From Dictyostelium discoideum (lineage: Eukaryota): DNA of 64,000 nucleotides. A program made the position numbers and the translations under genes. The notes under the pieces are model-generated. The model saw nothing but the letters and a program-made list of their open reading frames with translations. It was not told the origin of the DNA and did no database searches. The stretch is taken from NCBI GenBank assembly GCA_000004695.1, contig CM000153.2, positions 4,448,001 through 4,512,000 on the forward strand. The letters are read 5' to 3'. Shown piece by piece: positions 3,077 to 45,332 of the stretch (position 1 is its first letter; each line of letters starts with the position of its first letter).

Positions 3077-3077
<1 letters not shown>

Positions 3078-6000
3078 TGAATCCAATTCATGATAGAACT
3101 TCAGATTATCACAAATACTTAAAAGTTAAACAAGGTGATTCTGATTTATTTAAACTTACTGTTTCAGATAAGAGATACATTTGGTATAATCCAGATCCAA
3201 AAGAAAGAGATTCATATGAATGTGGTGAAATTGTTTCAGAAACCTCTGATTCTTTCACATTCAAAACCGTTGATGGTCAAGACAGACAAGTCAAAAAGGA
3301 TGATGCCAATCAACGTAATCCAATCAAATTCGATGGTGTCGAAGATATGTCTGAATTATCATACCTCAATGAACCAGCAGTTTTCCACAATCTCCGTGTT
3401 CGTTACAATCAAGATTTAATTTACACCTATTCAGGTCTCTTTTTGGTTGCCGTCAATCCATTCAAGAGAATTCCAATCTACACTCAAGAGATGGTTGATA
3501 TCTTCAAAGGTCGTAGAAGAAATGAAGTTGCCCCACATATTTTCGCCATTTCTGATGTTGCCTATCGTTCAATGTTAGATGATCGTCAAAATCAATCACT
3601 CTTAATCACTGGTGAATCTGGTGCTGGTAAGACTGAAAACACCAAAAAGGTCATTCAATATCTTGCATCTGTCGCTGGTCGTAATCAAGCCAATGGTAGT
3701 GGTGTATTGGAACAACAAATTCTCCAAGCCAATCCAATCCTTGAAGCTTTTGGTAATGCCAAAACCACCCGTAACAACAATTCATCTCGTTTCGGTAAAT
3801 TCATTGAAATTCAATTCAACAGTGCTGGTTTCATTAGTGGTGCTTCAATTCAATCCTACCTTTTAGAGAAATCACGTGTCGTTTTCCAATCTGAAACCGA
3901 ACGTAATTATCACATTTTCTATCAACTCTTAGCTGGTGCCACCGCCGAAGAAAAGAAAGCTCTTCACTTGGCTGGTCCAGAATCATTCAACTACTTAAAT
4001 CAAAGTGGTTGTGTTGATATCAAAGGTGTCTCTGATAGTGAAGAATTCAAAATCACTCGTCAAGCTATGGACATTGTTGGTTTCTCACAAGAAGAACAAA
4101 TGTCAATCTTTAAGATCATTGCTGGTATCTTACATTTAGGTAACATCAAATTCGAAAAAGGTGCTGGTGAAGGTGCTGTCCTCAAAGACAAAACCGCCCT
4201 CAACGCTGCTTCAACCGTCTTTGGTGTCAATCCATCAGTCCTTGAAAAGGCTCTCATGGAACCACGTATTTTAGCCGGTCGTGATTTAGTTGCTCAACAT
4301 CTCAACGTTGAAAAATCCTCATCATCAAGAGACGCTCTTGTCAAAGCTCTCTATGGTCGTCTTTTCCTCTGGTTGGTCAAAAAGATCAACAATGTCCTCT
4401 GTCAAGAGAGAAAAGCTTACTTTATTGGTGTTTTGGATATTTCAGGTTTTGAAATTTTCAAAGTCAATTCATTCGAACAATTATGTATCAATTATACCAA
4501 TGAAAAACTCCAACAATTCTTCAATCACCATATGTTCAAATTGGAACAAGAAGAATATCTTAAAGAGAAAATCAATTGGACTTTCATCGATTTTGGTCTT
4601 GATTCACAAGCCACTATCGATTTAATTGATGGTCGTCAACCACCAGGTATTTTAGCTCTTTTGGATGAACAATCTGTTTTCCCAAATGCCACCGATAATA
4701 CTTTAATCACCAAACTCCACAGTCACTTTAGCAAGAAGAACGCCAAATACGAAGAACCACGTTTCTCCAAAACCGAATTTGGTGTTACCCATTATGCTGG
4801 TCAAGTCATGTATGAGATTCAAGATTGGTTAGAAAAGAACAAAGATCCATTACAACAAGATCTCGAACTTTGCTTCAAAGATTCATCAGACAACGTTGTC
4901 ACCAAACTTTTCAATGATCCAAACATTGCCAGTCGTGCAAAGAAAGGTGCAAACTTTATCACTGTCGCCGCTCAATACAAGGAACAATTAGCCTCACTCA
5001 TGGCCACCCTTGAAACCACCAACCCACATTTCGTTCGTTGTATCATTCCAAACAACAAACAATTACCAGCCAAACTCGAAGATAAAGTTGTCCTCGACCA
5101 ATTACGTTGCAATGGTGTCCTCGAAGGTATTCGTATTACTCGTAAAGGTTTCCCAAATCGTATTATCTATGCCGATTTCGTCAAACGTTACTATTTATTA
5201 GCTCCAAACGTTCCAAGAGACGCTGAAGACTCACAAAAAGCCACCGATGCTGTTCTCAAACATCTTAACATTGATCCAGAACAATATCGTTTCGGTATCA
5301 CCAAGATTTTCTTCCGTGCCGGTCAATTAGCTCGTATTGAAGAAGCTCGTGAACAACGTATCTCTGAAATCATCAAAGCCATTCAAGCTGCCACTCGTGG
5401 TTGGATCGCTCGTAAAGTCTACAAACAAGCACGTGAACACACTGTTGCTGCTCGTATCATCCAACAAAATCTCCGTGCTTACATTGATTTCAAATCATGG
5501 CCATGGTGGAAACTCTTCTCAAAGGCTCGTCCATTATTAAAGAGAAGAAACTTTGAAAAGGAAATCAAAGAAAAGGAAAGAGAAATCTTAGAACTCAAAT
5601 CTAATCTCACCGACTCTACCACTCAAAAGGATAAATTAGAGAAATCACTCAAAGATACTGAATCCAATGTACTCGATCTCCAACGTCAACTCAAAGCTGA
5701 AAAAGAAACCCTCAAAGCTATGTACGATAGCAAGGATGCCTTAGAAGCTCAAAAACGTGAATTAGAAATCCGTGTTGAAGATATGGAATCTGAACTCGAC
5801 GAAAAGAAATTAGCTTTGGAAAACCTCCAAAACCAAAAACGTTCAGTCGAAGAAAAAGTCAGAGACTTGGAAGAAGAATTACAAGAGGAACAAAAATTAC
5901 GTAATACCCTTGAAAAATTAAAGAAGAAATACGAAGAGGAATTAGAAGAAATGAAACGTGTCAATGACGGTCAATCTGATACCATCTCTCGTTTAGAAAA

Positions 6001-9000
6001 AATCAAGGATGAATTACAAAAAGAAGTTGAAGAATTAACTGAAAGCTTCTCTGAAGAATCCAAAGATAAAGGTGTTTTAGAAAAGACTCGTGTCAGATTA
6101 CAAAGTGAATTGGATGATTTAACCGTAAGATTAGATAGTGAAACCAAAGACAAATCTGAATTACTCCGTCAAAAGAAGAAACTCGAAGAAGAACTCAAAC
6201 AAGTTCAAGAAGCTCTCGCTGCTGAAACTGCTGCTAAATTAGCTCAAGAAGCTGCCAACAAGAAATTACAAGGTGAATACACTGAATTAAACGAAAAATT
6301 CAACTCTGAAGTCACTGCTCGTTCAAATGTTGAAAAATCAAAGAAGACCCTCGAAAGTCAATTGGTTGCCGTCAACAACGAATTAGATGAAGAGAAGAAG
6401 AATCGTGATGCCCTTGAAAAGAAGAAGAAAGCTTTAGACGCTATGTTAGAGGAAATGAAAGATCAATTAGAATCCACTGGTGGTGAAAAGAAATCACTCT
6501 ATGATCTCAAAGTTAAACAAGAATCAGATATGGAGGCTTTACGTAATCAAATCTCTGAACTCCAATCAACTATTGCCAAATTAGAAAAGATTAAATCCAC
6601 TTTAGAAGGTGAAGTTGCTCGTTTACAAGGTGAATTAGAAGCTGAACAATTAGCCAAATCCAACGTTGAAAAACAAAAGAAGAAGGTTGAATTAGATTTG
6701 GAAGATAAATCTGCTCAATTAGCTGAAGAAACCGCCGCCAAACAAGCTTTAGATAAATTAAAGAAGAAATTAGAACAAGAATTATCTGAAGTTCAAACTC
6801 AACTCTCTGAAGCCAACAACAAGAATGTCAACTCTGATTCCACCAACAAACATTTGGAAACCTCTTTCAATAATCTCAAATTAGAATTGGAAGCTGAACA
6901 AAAAGCCAAACAAGCTCTTGAAAAGAAACGTCTCGGTTTAGAATCTGAATTAAAACATGTCAATGAACAATTGGAAGAAGAAAAGAAACAAAAAGAATCC
7001 AACGAAAAACGTAAAGTTGATTTAGAAAAGGAAGTCTCTGAACTCAAAGACCAAATTGAAGAAGAAGTTGCCTCCAAGAAAGCTGTCACTGAAGCCAAGA
7101 ACAAGAAAGAATCTGAACTCGATGAAATCAAGAGACAATATGCTGATGTTGTTTCATCTCGTGATAAATCAGTCGAACAATTAAAGACCTTACAAGCCAA
7201 GAATGAAGAATTAAGAAACACTGCTGAAGAAGCTGAAGGTCAATTAGATCGTGCTGAAAGAAGCAAGAAGAAAGCTGAATTCGATTTAGAAGAAGCCGTC
7301 AAGAATTTGGAAGAAGAAACCGCCAAGAAAGTTAAAGCTGAAAAAGCCATGAAGAAAGCTGAAACTGACTATCGTTCAACCAAATCTGAATTGGATGATG
7401 CCAAGAACGTCTCATCTGAACAATACGTTCAAATCAAACGTCTCAATGAAGAACTCTCTGAATTACGTAGTGTCTTGGAAGAAGCTGATGAACGTTGTAA
7501 CTCTGCCATCAAAGCAAAGAAAACCGCTGAATCTGCTTTAGAATCATTGAAAGATGAAATTGATGCTGCCAACAACGCCAAAGCTAAAGCTGAAAGAAAA
7601 TCCAAAGAATTAGAAGTTCGTGTCGCTGAATTAGAAGAATCATTGGAAGATAAATCTGGTACCGTCAATGTTGAATTCATTCGTAAGAAGGATGCTGAAA
7701 TCGATGATTTACGTGCTCGTCTCGACAGAGAAACTGAAAGTCGTATCAAATCTGATGAAGATAAGAAGAACACTCGTAAACAATTTGCTGATTTAGAAGC
7801 TAAGGTTGAAGAAGCTCAACGTGAAGTTGTCACCATCGATAGATTAAAGAAGAAACTCGAATCTGATATCATCGATTTATCAACTCAATTGGATACTGAA
7901 ACCAAATCTCGTATCAAGATTGAAAAGAGCAAGAAGAAACTCGAACAAACTCTCGCTGAAAGAAGAGCCGCTGAAGAAGGTTCATCCAAAGCTGCTGATG
8001 AAGAAATTCGTAAACAAGTCTGGCAAGAGGTTGATGAGTTACGTGCTCAATTAGATAGTGAACGTGCTGCTCTCAATGCTTCTGAAAAGAAGATCAAATC
8101 TTTGGTCGCCGAAGTCGATGAAGTCAAGGAACAATTAGAAGATGAAATCCTCGCCAAAGACAAATTAGTCAAAGCCAAACGTGCCCTCGAAGTTGAATTA
8201 GAGGAAGTCAGAGACCAATTAGAAGAGGAAGAAGATTCTCGTTCAGAATTAGAAGACAGCAAACGTCGTCTCACTACTGAAGTCGAAGATATCAAGAAGA
8301 AATACGATGCTGAAGTCGAACAAAACACCAAATTAGATGAAGCCAAGAAGAAACTCACTGATGATGTTGATACTCTCAAGAAACAATTGGAAGATGAAAA
8401 GAAGAAATTGAACGAATCTGAACGTGCCAAGAAACGTTTAGAATCTGAAAATGAAGATTTCCTTGCCAAACTTGATGCTGAAGTTAAGAATCGTTCACGT
8501 GCTGAAAAGGATCGTAAGAAATACGAAAAGGATCTCAAGGATACCAAATACAAATTAAACGACGAAGCTGCCACCAAGACTCAAACCGAAATTGGTGCCG
8601 CCAAACTCGAAGATCAAATCGATGAATTACGTTCCAAACTTGAACAAGAACAAGCCAAAGCCACTCAAGCCGATAAGAGTAAGAAGACTTTGGAAGGTGA
8701 AATTGACAACTTACGTGCTCAAATCGAAGATGAAGGTAAGATCAAGATGAGATTAGAAAAAGAAAAACGTGCTCTCGAAGGTGAATTAGAAGAATTAAGA
8801 GAAACCGTTGAAGAAGCTGAAGACTCTAAATCTGAAGCTGAACAATCCAAACGTTTAGTCGAATTAGAATTAGAAGATGCTCGTCGTAACCTCCAAAAAG
8901 AAATCGATGCCAAAGAAATCGCTGAAGATGCCAAATCTAACCTCCAACGTGAAATCGTCGAAGCCAAAGGTCGTCTCGAAGAAGAATCCATCGCTCGTAC

Positions 9001-9427
9001 CAACTCTGATCGTTCAAGAAAGAGACTCGAAGCTGAAATTGATGCCCTCACTGCTCAAGTTGATGCTGAACAAAAAGCCAAGAATCAACAAATCAAAGAA
9101 AACAAGAAGATCGAAACCGAACTCAAAGAATACAGAAAGAAATTCGGCGAATCAGAAAAGACCAAGACCAAAGAATTCCTCGTTGTCGAAAAACTCGAAA
9201 CAGATTACAAGAGAGCCAAGAAAGAAGCTGCTGATGAACAACAACAACGTCTTACTGTTGAAAACGATCTCCGTAAACACCTCAGTGAAATCTCATTACT
9301 CAAAGATGCCATTGATAAGTTACAACGTGATCACGATAAGACCAAACGTGAATTGGAAACAGAAACTGCCAGCAAAATCGAAATGCAAAGAAAGATGGCC
9401 GATTTCTTTGGTGGTTTCAAAGCTTAA
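3077..9427 (+). CDS. mhcA: Myosin II heavy chain (conventional non-muscle myosin), complete single-exon CDS of 2116 aa.
   Basis: One uninterrupted ORF. The N-terminal motor domain carries the P-loop GESGAGKT, switch I NSSRFGK, switch II LDISGFE and an IQ region (IQAATRGWIARK), followed by about 1300 aa of heptad coiled-coil tail. Length and sequence match Dictyostelium myosin II heavy chain. Codon usage is relatively GC-rich, as in a highly expressed gene. Confidence 0.97.
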
Positions 9428-9760
9428 ATCAATTTGATTTCTTCTTAATTCAATGCTAAAAAAAAAAATATTATAAAAAAAAAAACACACACAACAAATA
9501 AATTAATAAATACCATTTATTAAAAAAAAAAAAAAAAAAAAAAAACCTATTTTAACAATTATTTTATTATTTTTATTTTTAGTTTTGTTAAAAAAAAAAT
9601 TATTATCTTTATTTATAATTATAAAAAATTTATCCAATGATCATTTTTTAACTTTTTTATTATTTAGTATATTAAATAAAATAGATCTAAAAATTAAATA
9701 AGTTTTTTTTTATTTCTTTTATTATTTTTTCTTTTTAATATTTAATACAAATTTGACTTA

Positions 9761-12700
9761 TTAATACAATTTTTTTAATTTTGAACCCAACTTGTTTTTG
9801 GTTAAAAGTAAATTGGTTCTGAATTTTTTAAAAATAATTGAACAAATAATTATAATACAAACAAAACCAACACAAGGGACAACAATTACCACTGGTAAAA
9901 ACCATTTGTCATGACCATCATCATCATCATTAATGCATTTTTTTATATTCAGAGCTAACTAATACAGAGAAATCTTTAGATTTAAATGTTAGTATTTTTT
10001 TTTTTTTATTTTTTTTTTTTATTTTTTTTTTTAATACATACCTGGATCAATTATACATTTCTTTGTACAATGAGGTAAATATAAACCAACAATAACACTT
10101 TGGTTATTATTGTTTTGAATGGTTGGTTGTTTAACAATTTTTGTTGTAATAAATGTTGGGTAACCATCACTAACAACTCTATTAATAAAACGACCATATA
10201 AAATTTTTTTATTTTTTGAAATAATAATATAATTGGTCATTTTCTATTTGGCTTGTATCTATTTTGGTTTCCTCCAGATTACATTCATTAGGTTTATTGA
10301 TTTTGTCATCATCACTTACAATCGATTCCATTTGAAGTTGTAATGTATTTAGGGAGCTAATATATGGGTAATTTTCAATAACAATTGATATTTTAATTGA
10401 GTTTGCATCTAAAGTTAAATTCAATCCACCAAAGGAGTGTTCTCTTGTGGTTTTTACTTCCTCTATAGTATAAATTACATTACAATCGGTACCATTTAAT
10501 GTATGGTTGAATATAAATAAATTATTTATTGAATTGTCGGTAGTCCAGTTTTTAAAATTATTTTCTTTTACAATTTTTTGATTAAAATCATATTCAACCA
10601 AAGATAATAGTTTAATTTCATATGACGTTTTTTCATTATTTAAAACTGTTGAACCATCGGTTTTGTTAACATTGGTTTCAGAGTCAGGAGGTCTAATTGG
10701 TCCAGATGTTTCACTTGGAGTTGAGGAGGTGGTAGTAGGAGAGGTGGTTGAGGAAGGAGGATTATTGTTTTTAGCATTACAATCGAAGCCACCCCAACCT
10801 GAATTACATTTACATTCACCCACCAACGTATTACAAACTCCATGGCCAGAGCAATCATTTGGGCATTTATACACCATTTCAGAGTAATGGTAAATATCTT
10901 TTGCTATATATACAATACCATTTTGAGTTAGATTTACAGATTTTGTACCTGATCCAGCACCAATTGAGCAAGAGGCATATGAACTATTTATAATGAAATT
11001 GTTACAATCTAAATTTCCTATTCGAATAGTTAAATTATTATGTGAGAATCCAAACCAGCCAAATATTTGAACTAATCCACCATCTGTTGAAGATGGAATA
11101 ACTGATGAAATGTATTGTAGAGGTGTCTCACAATGTTGTCCAGTATAAAGTTTATTACATGTACAAATACCAGTTTTATTATTACAAACATTATCTATTG
11201 CATCTATTTCACTACAACCACCACAATCAATAAAAGGTAAATCACAATTTAAACCTTGATGATTATTATCACAAATGCAAATACCAGTTTGATTATTACA
11301 TTGTCCAAAAGCACCACAAAATAATTCACCACCATATAGGCAATTATTTATTAAAATTGAACAATCATTTCCTTTATATTCACTATTACAAATACATGAT
11401 CCATTGCCAGTAAAACAAATACCATTATTACAATCAACTGAACACATAGTAACATTATTAATTACTTGACCCCTCTCAATTGTAACTTGAGTAGTCAAAC
11501 CAAACGAGGTTAATAAAACAATTCTATATGGTTTTAATTGACTAAAGCCCATCAAACAATTTATTTCATTGAAAGTAGTGGATAAAATTTGACAATCATT
11601 ACCATCAATTGTAATTGAAATATCACTTTTATTATAAGAATAGAATGATCCAATAAAAGTATATGTATTCCCAACAAGAGGAGATGTTATTGTTTCAATA
11701 ATTGGATAGTTTGAATAAGTAGATAATGTATAATTTTTACCTATAAATTCAAAAGTAATAGCTTTTTTAGATCCTATATTGGTTACTTGGCCTTGAAATA
11801 ACTTGTTTGGTTTTATCATTGACATTGTGTTGGGTTGATTAGAGATTGGAATTTTGTAACCTAAATTTTCTCCCCATAGAGTAAAACTATTGTTTATAAA
11901 TATTATATTTGGTATTGGTGAGTTATTTATACATTTTGGAAAATTTAATTCTGAAACACTGGTGTTTTTAATTAAATAAGAAAGTACATCATATTGTGAA
12001 CTCATATAACCTTTTATTTTTTTTTTATATTTTCAAATTTCCAAAAAAAAAAATTAATAAAAATAATAACAAAAAGAAATTAAAAACTATAATAATAATA
12101 ATATACGTACATGAATAACAAACTGGTATATTAGTTATACCAATATTAAATGAAACATTTAAAAGGGTATTACAAAAACTATCGGGTATTGAGCCTTGAA
12201 AGTTATTATAAACAAAATTTCTAAAAATTATTGTTTGATTAGTTATTTTTTTTTTATAGATAATTTTAAAATAAAAATAATGATAATTACAAATTCGCTG
12301 TACTATTTAACAAAAAGTCTGGTAATGGTCCTGACAACGAATTTTTTCCAAGATTCACCGATTTAACATTCATAAATATATTTTTATTTGGAATAGTGGC
12401 AATTCCACCATTGGCTATTATAAATTCTTGTAAAGATCCTGGAAGATTTGTTAATGGAAGAGCAGAGTTTAAGATTGGAAAAACAAAACTGTTTGAAGAG
12501 GGATTTATTTTACTATAAAAATTATTGATATAAAATAATATTAATTATTAAAAAAAAAAAAAAAATTAAATAAAAAAAAATATCAATAATAATATATACA
12601 TACAAATATTTTAGTTGTTTTGAATTTGATAAATCAATTGTCGAATTCAATGGGCTTATATAACCATATAAAGAACTAATATTAGTAATAATAACAATTA

Positions 12701-13494
12701 TAAAGTATTAGTATTGAAATTTATATCAATTATAAAATAGTAATTATATATATGCACTTACAAAGATTCACAAAGGTTTGGATTTAAAAATAATGATAAT
12801 GGAAAGTCAATAAAACTTTGTAATGAATGAATGACCAAATTCTTTACAGATGAATAGGTATTTATATTATTACCATTTATTGGATTGGATACAATCATTA
12901 AAGTCCTAAAAGTTTTTTTTTTTTTTAAAATTAAAAAAAAAATTAATTTGGGATTAAATTTTAAAAGAATAATAATTAATAATTTTCTTACAATAATTCA
13001 ATTGAAATATTTGTGAAATCAGGAACAGATCTAACATGCATTTGAATGGTCTCTACACTATATTTTGGTTGGCTTGGATCAAAATCTTCTAAAGTTGGGA
13101 GAATATTGTCAAGTTGAGGATAAATATTACTAGGTAAAAGTATGGAAAAATAATTCAAGTGATTAAATATTTTTCTACTAATAACCCCATTATAATTATT
13201 TAATGGTTCTTCTAAAACTAAATATCTATTTTTATTTTATTTTATTTTATTTTATTTTATTTTATTTTTTTTTAAAAATTTATTGGTTAAAATATATGTC
13301 AATTTAGAAAAAAAAAAAAAAAAAACTTTTAAGTTATCAAAAAACCTACAATTTTGTTAAATTTTTTGGTAATGTTGTAGGAATAGTAATATTTTTACAA
13401 AAAAAAAAATTAATAGCTGAAATGGAAGTATCAAAAAAAGCCTCTCCATCAGAAATGGTATAATTATACAATATCCTTTAATAATAATAATAAT

Positions 13495-13546
<52 letters not shown>

Positions 13547-13981
13547 TAATAATAAAAATAATAATAATAAAATAAATAAAAAAATAATAGTTAGTAAAGA
13601 TTTTTAATTTGCTTTTTTTTTTTTTTTTTTTTTTTTAACTAACATTGAGTTTAATCTTCCAAAACATTTAAAATTTTGTTGTGAAATTGGATTAAGAAGT
13701 TGGGAAGCTTTAAGAGTAATACGTGTAATATAATAAATTGAATCTCCTATCTCATCCACATCTTGTTCACAAATAAATGAATCACTTGAACAAATAGATA
13801 CCGAATATGATTGAATGCTATTTTCAAAATAGCTGATAAAATCGTTTGATTTTCCTGTGACTGAAATTAAATTTTTTAAACAAATTTGATCATCATTTGA
13901 AATATATTGGTATGTATTGGAAAAAGAAACAAAATAATACAAATATATTAAAAGAACAAATATATAAACCTTTAGTTGCAT
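9761..13981 (-). CDS. Family member A of the LRR/EGF-like/TM receptor-like family (signal peptide, Cys-flanked LRRs, IPT-like region, EGF-like repeats, TM). Exons on the minus strand are 13644..13981, 13350..13475, 12992..13225, 12762..12905, 12604..12675, 12291..12512, 12111..12220 and a large exon ~10209(10320)..12010. Putative 3' exons 10042..10240 and 9761..9954 carry the TM helix.
   Basis: Exon 1 starts MQLKVYIFVLLIYLYYFVS (signal peptide). Middle exons encode plant-like LRRs (…LSGPLPDFLLNSTANL, …NFQGSIPDSFCN…) with GTAAGT/GTATGT/GTAAGA donors and phase-2 junctions that mirror the paralogs at 32-51 kb. The large exon encodes EGF-like Cys repeats (CxCxxxxxGxxC) and a TIG-like segment. The last exon encodes DKWFLPVVIVVPCVGFVCIIIICSIIF (TM) plus a short basic tail. 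The reading frame between 10209 and 10240 needs either a 76-nt GTAAGT..ATAG splice or a frameshift (see findings). Confidence 0.6.
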
Positions 13982-13990
13982 TTTAATTAA

Positions 13991-14041
<51 letters not shown>

Positions 14042-14465
14042 CAAAACAAATATCTGATTTCAATGAATTGTTTTATTGCCAAAAAAAAAAATAAAAAAAA
14101 AATAAAACTGATTTTTTATTCAACCAAACACCAAAATAAGTTTCAAATAAAAAAAAAAAAAAAAAAAAAAATAAATCTTTTGTAATTGTTTTTATTATCA
14201 AAATTATGATTATTTATTTTTTTTTTTTTTTTTTTTTTTCCCCTGTTTTGTTTTTTATTTTTACTTAATTTAATGAGTTAAAGAATTATCCTATTTACAA
14301 ATAATTACTAATCCCACTTTTTGTTTTTTTTTTTTTTTTTGCCAAATGGTTTTTCTTTTTTTTTTTTTTTTTTTTTTTTAAATACACAATTAAACTAAAT
14401 AATATAAAATCGGACATAATTTTTTTCTTTGTTTTTTTTCTTGTTTTTTTTTTTTTTTCTTCTTT

Positions 14466-34556: not shown

Positions 34557-37205
34557 TTATTGATGTGATTTCTTTTGAAATACTTTAAAATTAAATACGA
34601 AAATAAGCATTAATATTATAATTGGGATTATTATTACTAAAATTATGGAGAAATGGTTTGTTACTGCTACTAAATTGATAGATATCACTCCCACCATTTT
34701 TACTTGAATCACTATTATTACTTTCATTACTACTATCACTACTATTATTACTATTACTATTACTATTACTATCTATTACTATTACTATTGCTATTACTAC
34801 TACTATTACTACTATTACTACTATTACTACAAATTTTATTTTGATTATACAAAGGATAATAATTACCCTCCATTTATGATTGTTTTGGATTACTAACAAT
34901 ATAGTGTTATTATTATTAATTGTACATATTATATCTGATGGTGGATAGCATTTAATTTCAAGTTGAGTATTTGAAATGATATCGCATGGTTTATTATTGA
35001 TGGTTACTGATAAATCTATAAATATTACCGAACCAACCATTTAATATTATAGAATACCAAGTTCAGTTTGTTGTAGTTGTTGTGAATTAACTTGATGATT
35101 TGGTGTTAAACACATTGAATCAATCCATTGATTTGTACAATTACACTGACCATTGATTTGATTACAAATACCTTGATTACATCCTAATCCATTATTACAT
35201 TCACATACACCATTTATATAATTACAGAAACTACCATTTTCATCATTACAATCTGATGAACATTTCAATGATCTTAATTCACATTGATAACCTCTCCATT
35301 CATTTGAAAAACAATCACAAACACCCTTCACATAACTATATTCACCACTATTTTTAGCACAATTTGGAATTGGACAATTACTACCATTACAAATTTGATT
35401 CAATTTGAAATTAAAACTATTCGATACATTCATAACTTGAACTAAACAATTAATTTCTTTATTATTATTTACAATACCACCACTATTACTACCTACTTGT
35501 ATCACTGTTACCTTATTATTGATGATTTTATTTGAATTATAAAGATAACATTGAATTTGATTGAAATTACTTGATAATACTAAACAAGGTTCGTTTGAGA
35601 TTAAAACATTGATAACCGTATTATTATATGCAAAGTTTTTACCATTGATAATGAAATAATCTGAATATCTAATAACTGAATCAATTTGTGGTATGAATTC
35701 ATTATAAGCTGTAATTTCAAAAGTTCTTGGACCTTGAGGTAAATATGGAAATGTAATATTGAATCCTTTTGGCATTGGTTGAGTTGAAAAGATATTATTT
35801 TTCAATTGGAATGCTCTATTTGGTGTTATAATAGCAGTTGCAAAATTTTTATCAAACAATGCATGATTGGCGATTTACCACTTATTAAATTATTTCTAAT
35901 GTTACTAACATCAAAATTAACTTCACACCACTATCATCCATTTCTCCAGTAATTTCATTATTATATAAATAATATTCACTATGGGAAATTTAACTTGGTA
36001 ATGGAGTTTTAATACTATTGTTTTGAAATTTTATATATTTAATATTTGTCAATTTTTCATTAATATTTTTAAATTTACCTAAATTTCCATTCTTAAATTC
36101 ACTCTATAAAAAAGATTTAATCATTAATAACTTTTAAATGATTTTAATACTTTTACAATTGGTTGAATATATTTACAGTAAAAACAAATTTTTTGGTAAT
36201 CCAGAAAATGGAAAATCACCATCAATATTGAATAATTTACCTGAACTATTAAATTAATAGAAAAAAAGTTATAAAAGGAGTTAATAAATATCTTGTTTCA
36301 TTTGGGGTAGGATCTCATTCAATACTTTAAATAACCTTTTAATTTAACCAAAACTTACATTGATACCTCATTTTCATAATTATTTGATAAATTAATAAAG
36401 GTAGGAGGCGTATCTATTTGATAAGTAATTGTACTTAATATATTGTTTTTTTTTTAAAAAAAGTTAAAATAATTGTAATAATAATAAAAAATAATGGAGA
36501 AAATAAATAAAAAATATTTACAGACCAGTATTTTTATTTCAGCTGGTATTTCACTTAAAGCAATAGGGAAGGGATATATTTGAGTTTTGTCTGAAGGTGT
36601 TATTGAAAATGCAATTACATTTGAAAATTTTGAAAAAATTGAAAATGAATATATATCAGCTCCACCTAAAAGTGTGAGTTGACTTTTTTTTATTAAAAAA
36701 TGTTTTTTTTTTAAATAATTATTAATATTTATAACATTGGGTAAAAAAAAAAAAAAAAAAAAAAATATATATATAAAAAATAATAAAAAAAAAAAAAATT
36801 TGTAAATACAAACAAAATAGATAAATTAATGTTTTTCACTGATGGTATATTATGAGAATATATGTTATAAATATTGAAAATGGCAGTCGTGGTATCATTC
36901 AAGTCATTTATAAAATTTATTTTATATTTTGGTTTTTGAGTTTGGTTTTTCAACTGAAATTTTTGAACATTTAAAAAACTTGAGAAATATATATTTAGTG
37001 GTCCAGAAAGGTACAATAATAAACTTAATGATTCTACTTGTATAATTTTATTGAACCCAATTTCCACATCAAATAATGATGAATTACCAATAAATAATGA
37101 CATACATGTTAAAGTATTTGGAAATTTTCCTATTAAAAAATTATTTTCAACTTTAAATAAATCTATATTACTGATTTATATTATTTACATATTAGATTTA
37201 TGTAT

Positions 37206-39638: not shown

Positions 39639-43127
<3,489 letters not shown>

Positions 43128-43400: not shown

Positions 43401-45332
43401 TTAAAATTTAATATCTGTTTCTTCCAACTCTGTGAAATTTTTTTTATCTTTAAATATTTTTCTAGTTATTACTTTGCATTGATTACTTTTAATAACCAAA
43501 ACTAAAAGGATTATTAAAATTACAGATGGAATTAAAATTGATATTATAACTAAAATATTTTTTCTGGAAAATTTTGGATTTTGAGCATCCTCCTTATTTT
43601 CACCATTAATATCATTGCCACTACTATTACTACTATTACTACTACTACTACTACTACCATTATTAATACACACGCTAATACCATCTAAAGGTGTTGGGTT
43701 ATAAAATCCACTCCAATGAACATTGTTTTGAACAACTGATAATTCCAGATTATTATTATTATATTGGTAACAATAGATGTCTGATGGATAACATTCGACC
43801 ATATAGTCAGAATCTGCAACAATGTCACATTCTATTTGATTTACTTTAATAGTTAGATCATTTCGAAAAATTTCACTACCAAACCAACCATTTAATATTA
43901 ATAGATTACCAAGAGCACCTCGTTTAATTTCTTGTGAGGTAACCATAGTATTAGGTATATTACAATTTGAAGCAGTCCATTGAATAGTACAATTACATTG
44001 ACCAAATAAATAATCACAAATTCCACCATTACTACAACCTAATCCTTCATTACATAGTCTACCACTACAATCATCGAATATTCTATTTTCATTACATTCG
44101 CATTTACCATTAATATTATTACAAATACCACCACCATCATTATTACTACAATCTGATGAGCATTTCAATGGTTTTTGTTCACATTGATAACCTCTCCATT
44201 TATTGGAAAAACAATCACAGACTCCACTCTCTTTATTATATACACCTCCATTTTTTATATTACATACCGGAATTGGACAATTAATACCATTACAAATTTG
44301 ATTCAATTTGAAATTAAAACTATTCGATACATTCATAACTTGAACTAAACAATTAATTTCAATACTACTACTACTACTGCTGCTATCACTGTTACTATTA
44401 TTATTGATGATTTTATTTGAATTATAAAGATAACATTGAATTTGATTGAAATTACTTGATAATACTAAACAAAGTTCGTTTGAGATTAAAACATTGATAA
44501 CCGTATTATTATATGCAAAGTATTTACCATTGATAATGAAATAATCTGAATATCTAATAACTGAATCAATTTGTGGTATGAATTCATTATAAGCTGTAAT
44601 TTCAAAAGTTCTTGAACCTTGTGGTAAATATGGAAATGTAATATTGAATCCTTTTGGCATTGGACCAGTTACTCTATTATTCTTTGTAATTTCAAATAAT
44701 GTATTTTCAATTTTAATATTTTCTGCCCAAATATTTGGATTATCTAATTTGAATGATATACCAAAACCAAGATCTCTACCATATAGCATCAATGATTTAG
44801 TTTGATTATCATATGATAGATTTAGTTCAATAGTAGTACAATCTTCTAAATGGTTAATATCTAAATTTGTGAATCTATTACCATTAACAATTGCACTAGT
44901 AATTGGATTAAGGTAATGACAAACTACACATGATGGTGCTTTACCACCAATTAAATTATTACTAATATCGAAAGTTATTGAACACCAACTATCATCCATT
45001 TCACCTGTTAATTTATTATCATTTAAATATAACTCAAGTAAAACATCCATTGATTTAATAAAAGATGATGTTGGTAATTTACTGGTTAAACCATTAAATG
45101 ATAAATCTATTATATTTGTTTTCTCTTTGAAAATATTAAAATTGATTACACTTATATTTCCATTTTTCAATTGACTTTTGAAAAAAAAAAAATTAGTATA
45201 CTATTATTATATTTATCTTGTGTTTTAATTATTATTATTTTAAAATAGTTACAATGTATTTAAATTTGGTGGTAACACTGAAAATGGAAAGTTACCATTA
45301 ATATTGAATAAATTACCTGCCTTTGCAATATA

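Follow-up and report, generated by a model that had tools for sequence, protein, structure and literature searches.

The gene comC is listed as encoding an EGF-domain protein with a signal peptide and a transmembrane (TM) helix and as confined to group 4 dictyostelids (PMC4931340). The Pfam set of the ComC family comprises PF22933 (ComC_SSD), PF24141 (LRR_ComC), PF24143 (Beta-sand_ComC_2nd), EGF and TIG. Canonical spliceosomal introns of Dictyostelium are short, run from GT to AG and are strongly AT-rich, and A-rich runs are the type of sequence in which slippage can occur.

We describe a ComC-family gene in the window, the whole 64,000-nucleotide stretch of Dictyostelium discoideum DNA that was analyzed (GC about 20–25%). 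The gene is multi-exon, runs on the minus strand from ~13981 to 9761 and lies tail-to-tail with mhcA (myosin II heavy chain), whose intronless ORF occupies 3077..9427 on the plus strand and ends in ...FFGGFKA. Judged from its sequence, the product is a ComC-family type I surface protein, predicted to contain LRR, beta-sandwich, EGF, TIG and ComC_SSD segments followed by a TM helix; Pfam matches to EGF_2, EGF_Teneurin and TIG are present, and the TM helix is encoded but out of frame. The long exon ORF (Table 1) covers the second ComC beta-sandwich as well as EGF and TIG segments; of the 222 positions of ComC_SSD it includes the first ~160. Four remoter relatives, with 23–26% identity to the TIG/EGF part of the gene, follow in tandem on the same strand, which makes for a gene cluster of the ComC, EGF and TIG families within the window. 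We propose that the frame break in the gene is very probably a recent, strain-polymorphic 8-bp deletion, that the 76 nt which could bridge it are coding, and that the allele is disabled.

Table 1. Features of the ComC-family gene and of its tandem relatives, numbered from the first letter of the window
Feature	Position	Strand	Details
Upstream exons and AT-rich introns	12006..13981	-	start MQLKVYIFVLL...; exon chain approximate
Long exon ORF	12005..10209	-	598 aa from MSSQYD...; ends ...ENDQLYYYFKK, stop
Proposed 76-nt "intron"	10319..10244	-	read here as codons VSDDDKINKPNECNLEETKIDTSQI of ComC_SSD, with an invariant Cys
8-bp deletion junction	10229..10235	-	intact allele GACC[AATTATTA]AATTATATT
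Premature TAA of long exon ORF	10211..10209	-	
Remaining ComC_SSD coding sequence	10042..10243	-	NYIIISKNKKILYGRF...HCTKKCIIDP; out of frame with upstream exon
Genuine intron	10041..9974	-	68 nt, 8.8% GC, GTATGT...TACTAAC...AAAG, phase 1
A7 run, second frameshift relative to the family	9944..9938	-	reads EYKKMH, stop at 9932..9930
Conserved Cys, TM helix and cytoplasmic tail	9761..9937	-	open frame; helix WFLPVVIVVPCVGFVCIIIICSIIF, tail KKFRTNLLLTKNKLGSKLKKLY, stop
Tandem relative	35050..35835	-	
Tandem relative	40128..41039	-	
Tandem relative	43800..44795	-	
Tandem relative	47772..48785	-	

The C-terminus of the long exon ORF reads ...IENDQLYYYFKK before the stop. The preliminary description of this DNA had noted that the ORF ends at 10209, that the segment leading on to the TM helix (...KMTNYIIISKNKKILYGRFINRVVSDGYPTF...HCTKKCIIDPG, then a GTATGT intron) lies in another frame, and that removal of a 76-nt interval, which starts with GTAAGT and ends with CAAATAG, rejoins the two frames (...LQMESI/KMTNYIIISK...). 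We confirm each of these observations on the minus strand. Two readings had been offered for them, an intron that yields secreted or membrane isoforms and a frameshift mutation in this copy. The latter proves correct, the lesion being an 8-bp microhomology deletion at 10235/10234, while isoform switching finds no support: the segment is coding not only in an intact allele but also in the D. citrinum ortholog and all the paralogs that were examined. Missed in that description was that the join to the TM exon has a separate frame problem.

Homology search with the long ORF identified an intact allele. Among the retrieved database proteins, only two map to the window, and one of them, a 660-aa protein from Logan assemblies (P0005), is identical to the window ORF except for one Pro/Leu substitution. 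Six independent genomic contigs (L005–L010), obtained from six sequencing runs and belonging to another D. discoideum strain, encode this protein, which reads through the break as ...IENDQLLNYIIISKNKKILYGRF..., within the longer stretch ...TSQIENDQLLNYIIISKNKKILYGRF...IIDPGMY. DNA alignment places 8 extra bases, AATTATTA, between 10235 and 10234 of these contigs; the window and a second D. discoideum assembly (L001) lack exactly these bases. Collinearity of the contigs with window 12565..10007 extends to the introns, which shows them to be genomic, and the sole other difference from the window over 2.5 kb is a C/T SNP at 10717. Given this collinearity over 2.5 kb with a single SNP, it is unlikely that the contigs derive from a paralog instead of from this locus. 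The SNP itself exchanges Pro for Leu in a Ser/Thr/Pro-rich linker (SSTPSETSG vs SSTLSETSG). All six contigs end at ~10007, inside an A11-T-A12-T-A13 tract of the 68-nt intron, which leaves short-read assemblies unable to join the SSD and TM exons at this locus.

The junction is flanked by a 6-nt microhomology, AATTAT (10234..10229), so that the exact breakpoint is ambiguous, and the bases lost made up one copy of an imperfect direct repeat. The indel is not divisible by 3 relative to either the intact conspecific allele or the outgroup; it shifts the frame within ComC_SSD and leads to the stop 24 nt downstream. The truncated ORF matches ComC_SSD only as far as profile position 162 of 222 and lacks the TM helix.

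The polarity of this change follows from D. citrinum. Its ortholog, the second database protein that maps to the window (P0006), is 77% identical and lies in a syntenic locus with p450, eIF3I, the gene itself and mhcA as neighborhood. The D. citrinum DNA GAAAATGATCAAATATTAAATTATATTACA encodes ENDQILNYIT with the 8 nt present, and the protein reads IESIASDDKINQPNECNHEETQIDTSQIENDQILNYITISKNKKILYGRF across the break, which makes the deletion in the window derived. D. citrinum also shares the GTATGT intron, whose acceptor gives DP/DFSVLVSSEYKECSSGNNGRGKWFLPVVIVVPCFAF...KKLY and a stop, with TM helix and tail intact. The annotated ortholog ends in ...KWFLPVNQFSLD, and the genomic frame goes on as TM helix and tail KWFLPVVIVVPCFAFVCIIIFGSIIIKKYRTNFLLTKNKIGSKLKKLY up to a stop (L011 7072..7290); the annotated model thus seems, on sequence, to contain a spurious terminal splice. 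Immediately upstream lies a gene of 261 aa (L011 2755..3887), which may be a split-off N-terminus of the same D. citrinum gene.

We considered whether the frame break is a sequencing or assembly artefact that is absent from the organism. The region is AT-rich and repetitive, and assemblies of the D. discoideum genome disagree at long homopolymers. Over 19.4 kb, chromosome CM142510.1 of GCA_054883475.1 is 99.8% identical to the window; across 9400..14300 the differences concern homopolymer-run lengths, bar one substitution with a 1-nt indel at ~14240. Long A/T runs at 13613..13614, 13994..14005 and 14149..14151 differ by up to 12 bases between the assemblies. These tracts are unreliable or hypervariable, unlike the A7 run and the deletion junction, which are stable: the two independently assembled sequences are identical over 9400..13612, junction included. 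The same deletion in an independent assembly is therefore not a sequencing error. Loss of 8 bp from non-homopolymer sequence is also atypical of read errors, and the A7 run is short and the same in both assemblies. These observations make an artefact extremely unlikely. The homopolymers of 10209–10245, to which suspicion had earlier been directed, are likewise cleared, since a 1-nt miscount sought there is ruled out by the nature of the lesion. In searches for further assemblies by way of neighboring genes, the exact MhcA sequence matched one contig only and a 422-aa neighbor none.

If 10319..10244 were a real alternative intron, its retention would produce a secreted protein and its removal, together with that of the GTATGT intron, a TM-anchored one. 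The segment has a perfect GTAAGT donor, an AG acceptor (...ATAG) and a length within the 68–166 nt of the predicted introns of this gene. In composition it lacks the AT-richness that sets introns apart from flanking exons: at 31.6% GC, it compares with 28.9 +/- 6.6% for 76-nt windows of the ORF and with 4–14% for the eight predicted introns of the gene. Three earlier AGs, which would give introns of 48, 61 and 68 nt, precede and compete with the required acceptor. The supposed donor is GCAAGT (Ala-Ser) in D. citrinum, where the window has GTAAGT (Val-Ser), and the D. citrinum counterpart of the segment is 3 nt shorter, an in-frame indel. Since 76 is 1 modulo 3, removal of the segment from the intact, ancestral allele would break its frame.

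The ortholog and four paralogs align through the segment, and no relative has an intron there. The four Dictyostelium paralogs were retrieved by homology to the C-terminal region (33–39% identity), all carry Pfam PF22933 ComC_SSD and are continuous across the break region, as in P0001, ...LNTLQLQMKSSVNEIQTNHEMNNCNDGQIEINSAPNQDNSLNYITIKKDAKVLNGRFIDRIESDG. In tblastn alignments each paralog follows the ORF frame through the 76 nt and switches frame at ~10234..10224; three of the paralogs encode the entire SSD and TM region in a single intronless exon. An invariant Cys lies inside the segment in alignments of 6 and of 11 family members. Against D. citrinum, the segment has a dN/dS of 0.114, a figure based on 5.5 synonymous and 4.5 non-synonymous differences, most of them at the third position of a codon; the gene as a whole has 0.218. 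The segment is thus under purifying selection as coding sequence in intact allele, ortholog and paralogs.

Profile matches point in the same direction. With the 8 bp restored, the protein matches ComC_SSD at 195 bits in one stretch, over profile positions 2–222 of 222; the unrepaired ORF scores 92 bits and ends at position 162, both above the gathering cut-off of 24 bits. Splicing out the 76 nt gives 147 bits in two broken stretches, as it splits the domain match and loses the invariant Cys. By these sequence properties the 76 nt are ordinary coding sequence, and a real alternative intron at this position is very unlikely.

An AlphaFold model of the ComC supersandwich domain (ComC_SSD) is all-beta (pLDDT 81.7, pTM 0.81). 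Residues 124–148, to which the segment corresponds, take in the last part of one strand, a loop modeled with low confidence, the Cys and another, short strand. Loss of the segment might, on this model, be structurally tolerable; as proof that the segment is indispensable, the structure is weakly informative, the segment being the least confident and most loop-rich part of it. A Foldseek search of the PDB with the model (repaired, window 10042..10690 region) gave as best match 6nyq_C, the luminal domain of the lysosomal glycoprotein GLMP (E 3e-5, TM 0.56); glucosidase chains and the periplasmic domain of YidC are among the matches at E > 0.001.

How readily a frameshift finds an intron-like bridge was estimated by simulating random 8-nt deletions in the intact ORF and scanning for rescue GT...AG intervals of 50–200 nt. 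A frame-restoring interval was available at 97% of deletion positions, and one with a GTA donor at 86%; a bridging GT-AG is therefore expected by chance. Frame-restoring intervals with a perfect GTAAGT or GTATGT donor were rare, at 0.6% of positions (8/1383), which is a point in favor of a functional splice. GTAAGT occurs once in the 1.8-kb ORF and not at all in the 6.35-kb mhcA ORF. That the perfect donor lies near the lesion is a genuine coincidence, though one noticed post hoc, and leaves cryptic splicing with a small probability.

A public gene model is also relevant to the proposed intron. The model of GCA_054883475.1 (L001 16854..20903, minus strand, corresponding to window ~9930..13979) has 1050 aa, ends at the MH stop and is predicted to lack a TM helix. 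Enumeration left 20 exon chains compatible with its length and ends, so that its exact exon structure was not fixed; 17 of the 20 use 10319..10244, and the other 3 use 10282..10177. We consider it probable, although not proven, that this model bridges the frameshift with the 76-nt segment as a pseudo-intron.

A second frame break lies beyond the genuine 68-nt intron. The acceptor of this intron, AAAG at 9974, is the first AG past the TACTAAC branch-like motif, and the position of the intron is conserved in D. citrinum. Its removal joins DP/DFSVLVSSEYK and restores the invariant DPDFSxL motif, but this homology-supported acceptor yields DFSVLVSSEYKKMH followed by a stop, so that the frame of the TM helix is out of reach through the conserved splice. 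Were the A7 run an A6, the frame would continue as EYKKCINDDDDGHDKWFLPVV... up to the TM helix, and this reading, EYKKCINDDDDGHDKWFLPVVIVVP..., lines up with both the invariant Cys and the helix. Comparison with that Cys and with the TM exon of D. citrinum, which is intact, makes A6 the presumed former state of the run; A7 is present in both assemblies. To find the A-run of strains with the intact allele, we ran exact look-ups of the 43-aa TM ORF and of the 598-aa ORF and a homology search with the TM-exon peptide, none of which gave a match.

The second break also weighs against switching between secreted and anchored isoforms. Even with the 76 nt removed, the conserved intron still leads to EYKKMH and a stop, and a TM isoform would need a second unconventional splice. 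The TM helix comes into frame solely if the intron is extended to 87 nt, up to the TTAG acceptor at 9955, at the price of the invariant DFSxL motif (DFSVLVS). It is conceivable, though very unlikely indeed, that in strains with the deletion a cryptic intron from GTAAGT at 10319 to AG at 10244, together with the acceptor at 9955, restores a membrane-anchored protein. If so, this would be a natural rescue of a double-frameshift allele by cryptic splicing, with a protein short of about 25 + 7 residues, and the ~0.6% coincidence of the perfect donor would have a cause.

Programmed recoding, by +1 ribosomal frameshifting near 10235 or by transcriptional slippage at A runs, would be another way to cross the break. 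Nothing specific speaks for it beyond the A-rich runs AAAAAATAAAAAAA (10217..10204) and A7, which are slippage-type sequence. The derived deletion, absent from the intact allele and the outgroup, explains the break by itself; there is no conserved recoding signal, and the relatives do not depend on recoding. We regard the probability of recoding as negligible.

Taken together, we propose the following course of events. In the lineage of the window strain, the 8 bp between two AATTAT copies were lost, most likely by replication slippage or microhomology-mediated repair. The deletion shifts the ComC_SSD frame onto the stop at 10209. The intron-like look of the 76 nt is fortuitous: Val-Ser codons that happen to be GTA AGT at its start, an AG at its end and a length of 1 modulo 3. 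Past the real 68-nt intron, a second lesion, the A7 run from a presumed former A6, stops the frame before the TM helix. The allele is most likely null: with ~170 nt between its stop and the last intron downstream, the mRNA is plausibly NMD-sensitive. The most that it would yield is a truncated secreted fragment without the last quarter of the SSD domain and without the anchor.

The main value of these results is a correction: an apparent GC-rich intron for isoform switching is a strain-specific 8-bp deletion with a second frameshift downstream. For annotation, the public model appears to hide the frameshift, presenting a 1050-aa protein without 25 conserved residues and without the TM helix. 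The phenomenon is an ordinary one, and the interest here is mainly one of annotation hygiene. Social amoebae have large families of ComC, EGF and TIG surface proteins that evolve fast, and the locus adds to them one more presence/absence polymorphism, which would be of biological relevance only if the gene has a strain-differing role in cell-cell recognition.

In comparison with known systems, the gene resembles the ComC family in its full-length ComC_SSD once repaired, its EGF and TIG segments, the TM helix and short basic tail at its C-terminus and the tandem arrangement of other members in the same window. It is a diverged member of the family and not comC, at 33–39% identity to the nearest paralogs found, and unlike in the family, the last ~60 positions of the domain and the TM helix fall outside the coding frame of the window allele. 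The 76-nt segment is like Dictyostelium introns in its GTAAGT...AG boundaries and its length, and unlike them in its exon-like composition, in the conserved residues it encodes, in a donor that the ortholog does not keep, in the lack of any relative with an intron there and in the broken frame that its removal would leave in the intact allele. Strain-polymorphic null alleles and young unitary pseudogenes offer the closer parallel, with a derived indel not divisible by 3 and flanked by a 6-nt direct repeat. Like young unitary pseudogenes, the window allele has a premature stop in a conserved domain and a second frame-breaking lesion downstream, and it has otherwise barely diverged from the intact allele. 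It differs from them in that most of its coding sequence is still pristine and its loss of expression or function is a prediction.
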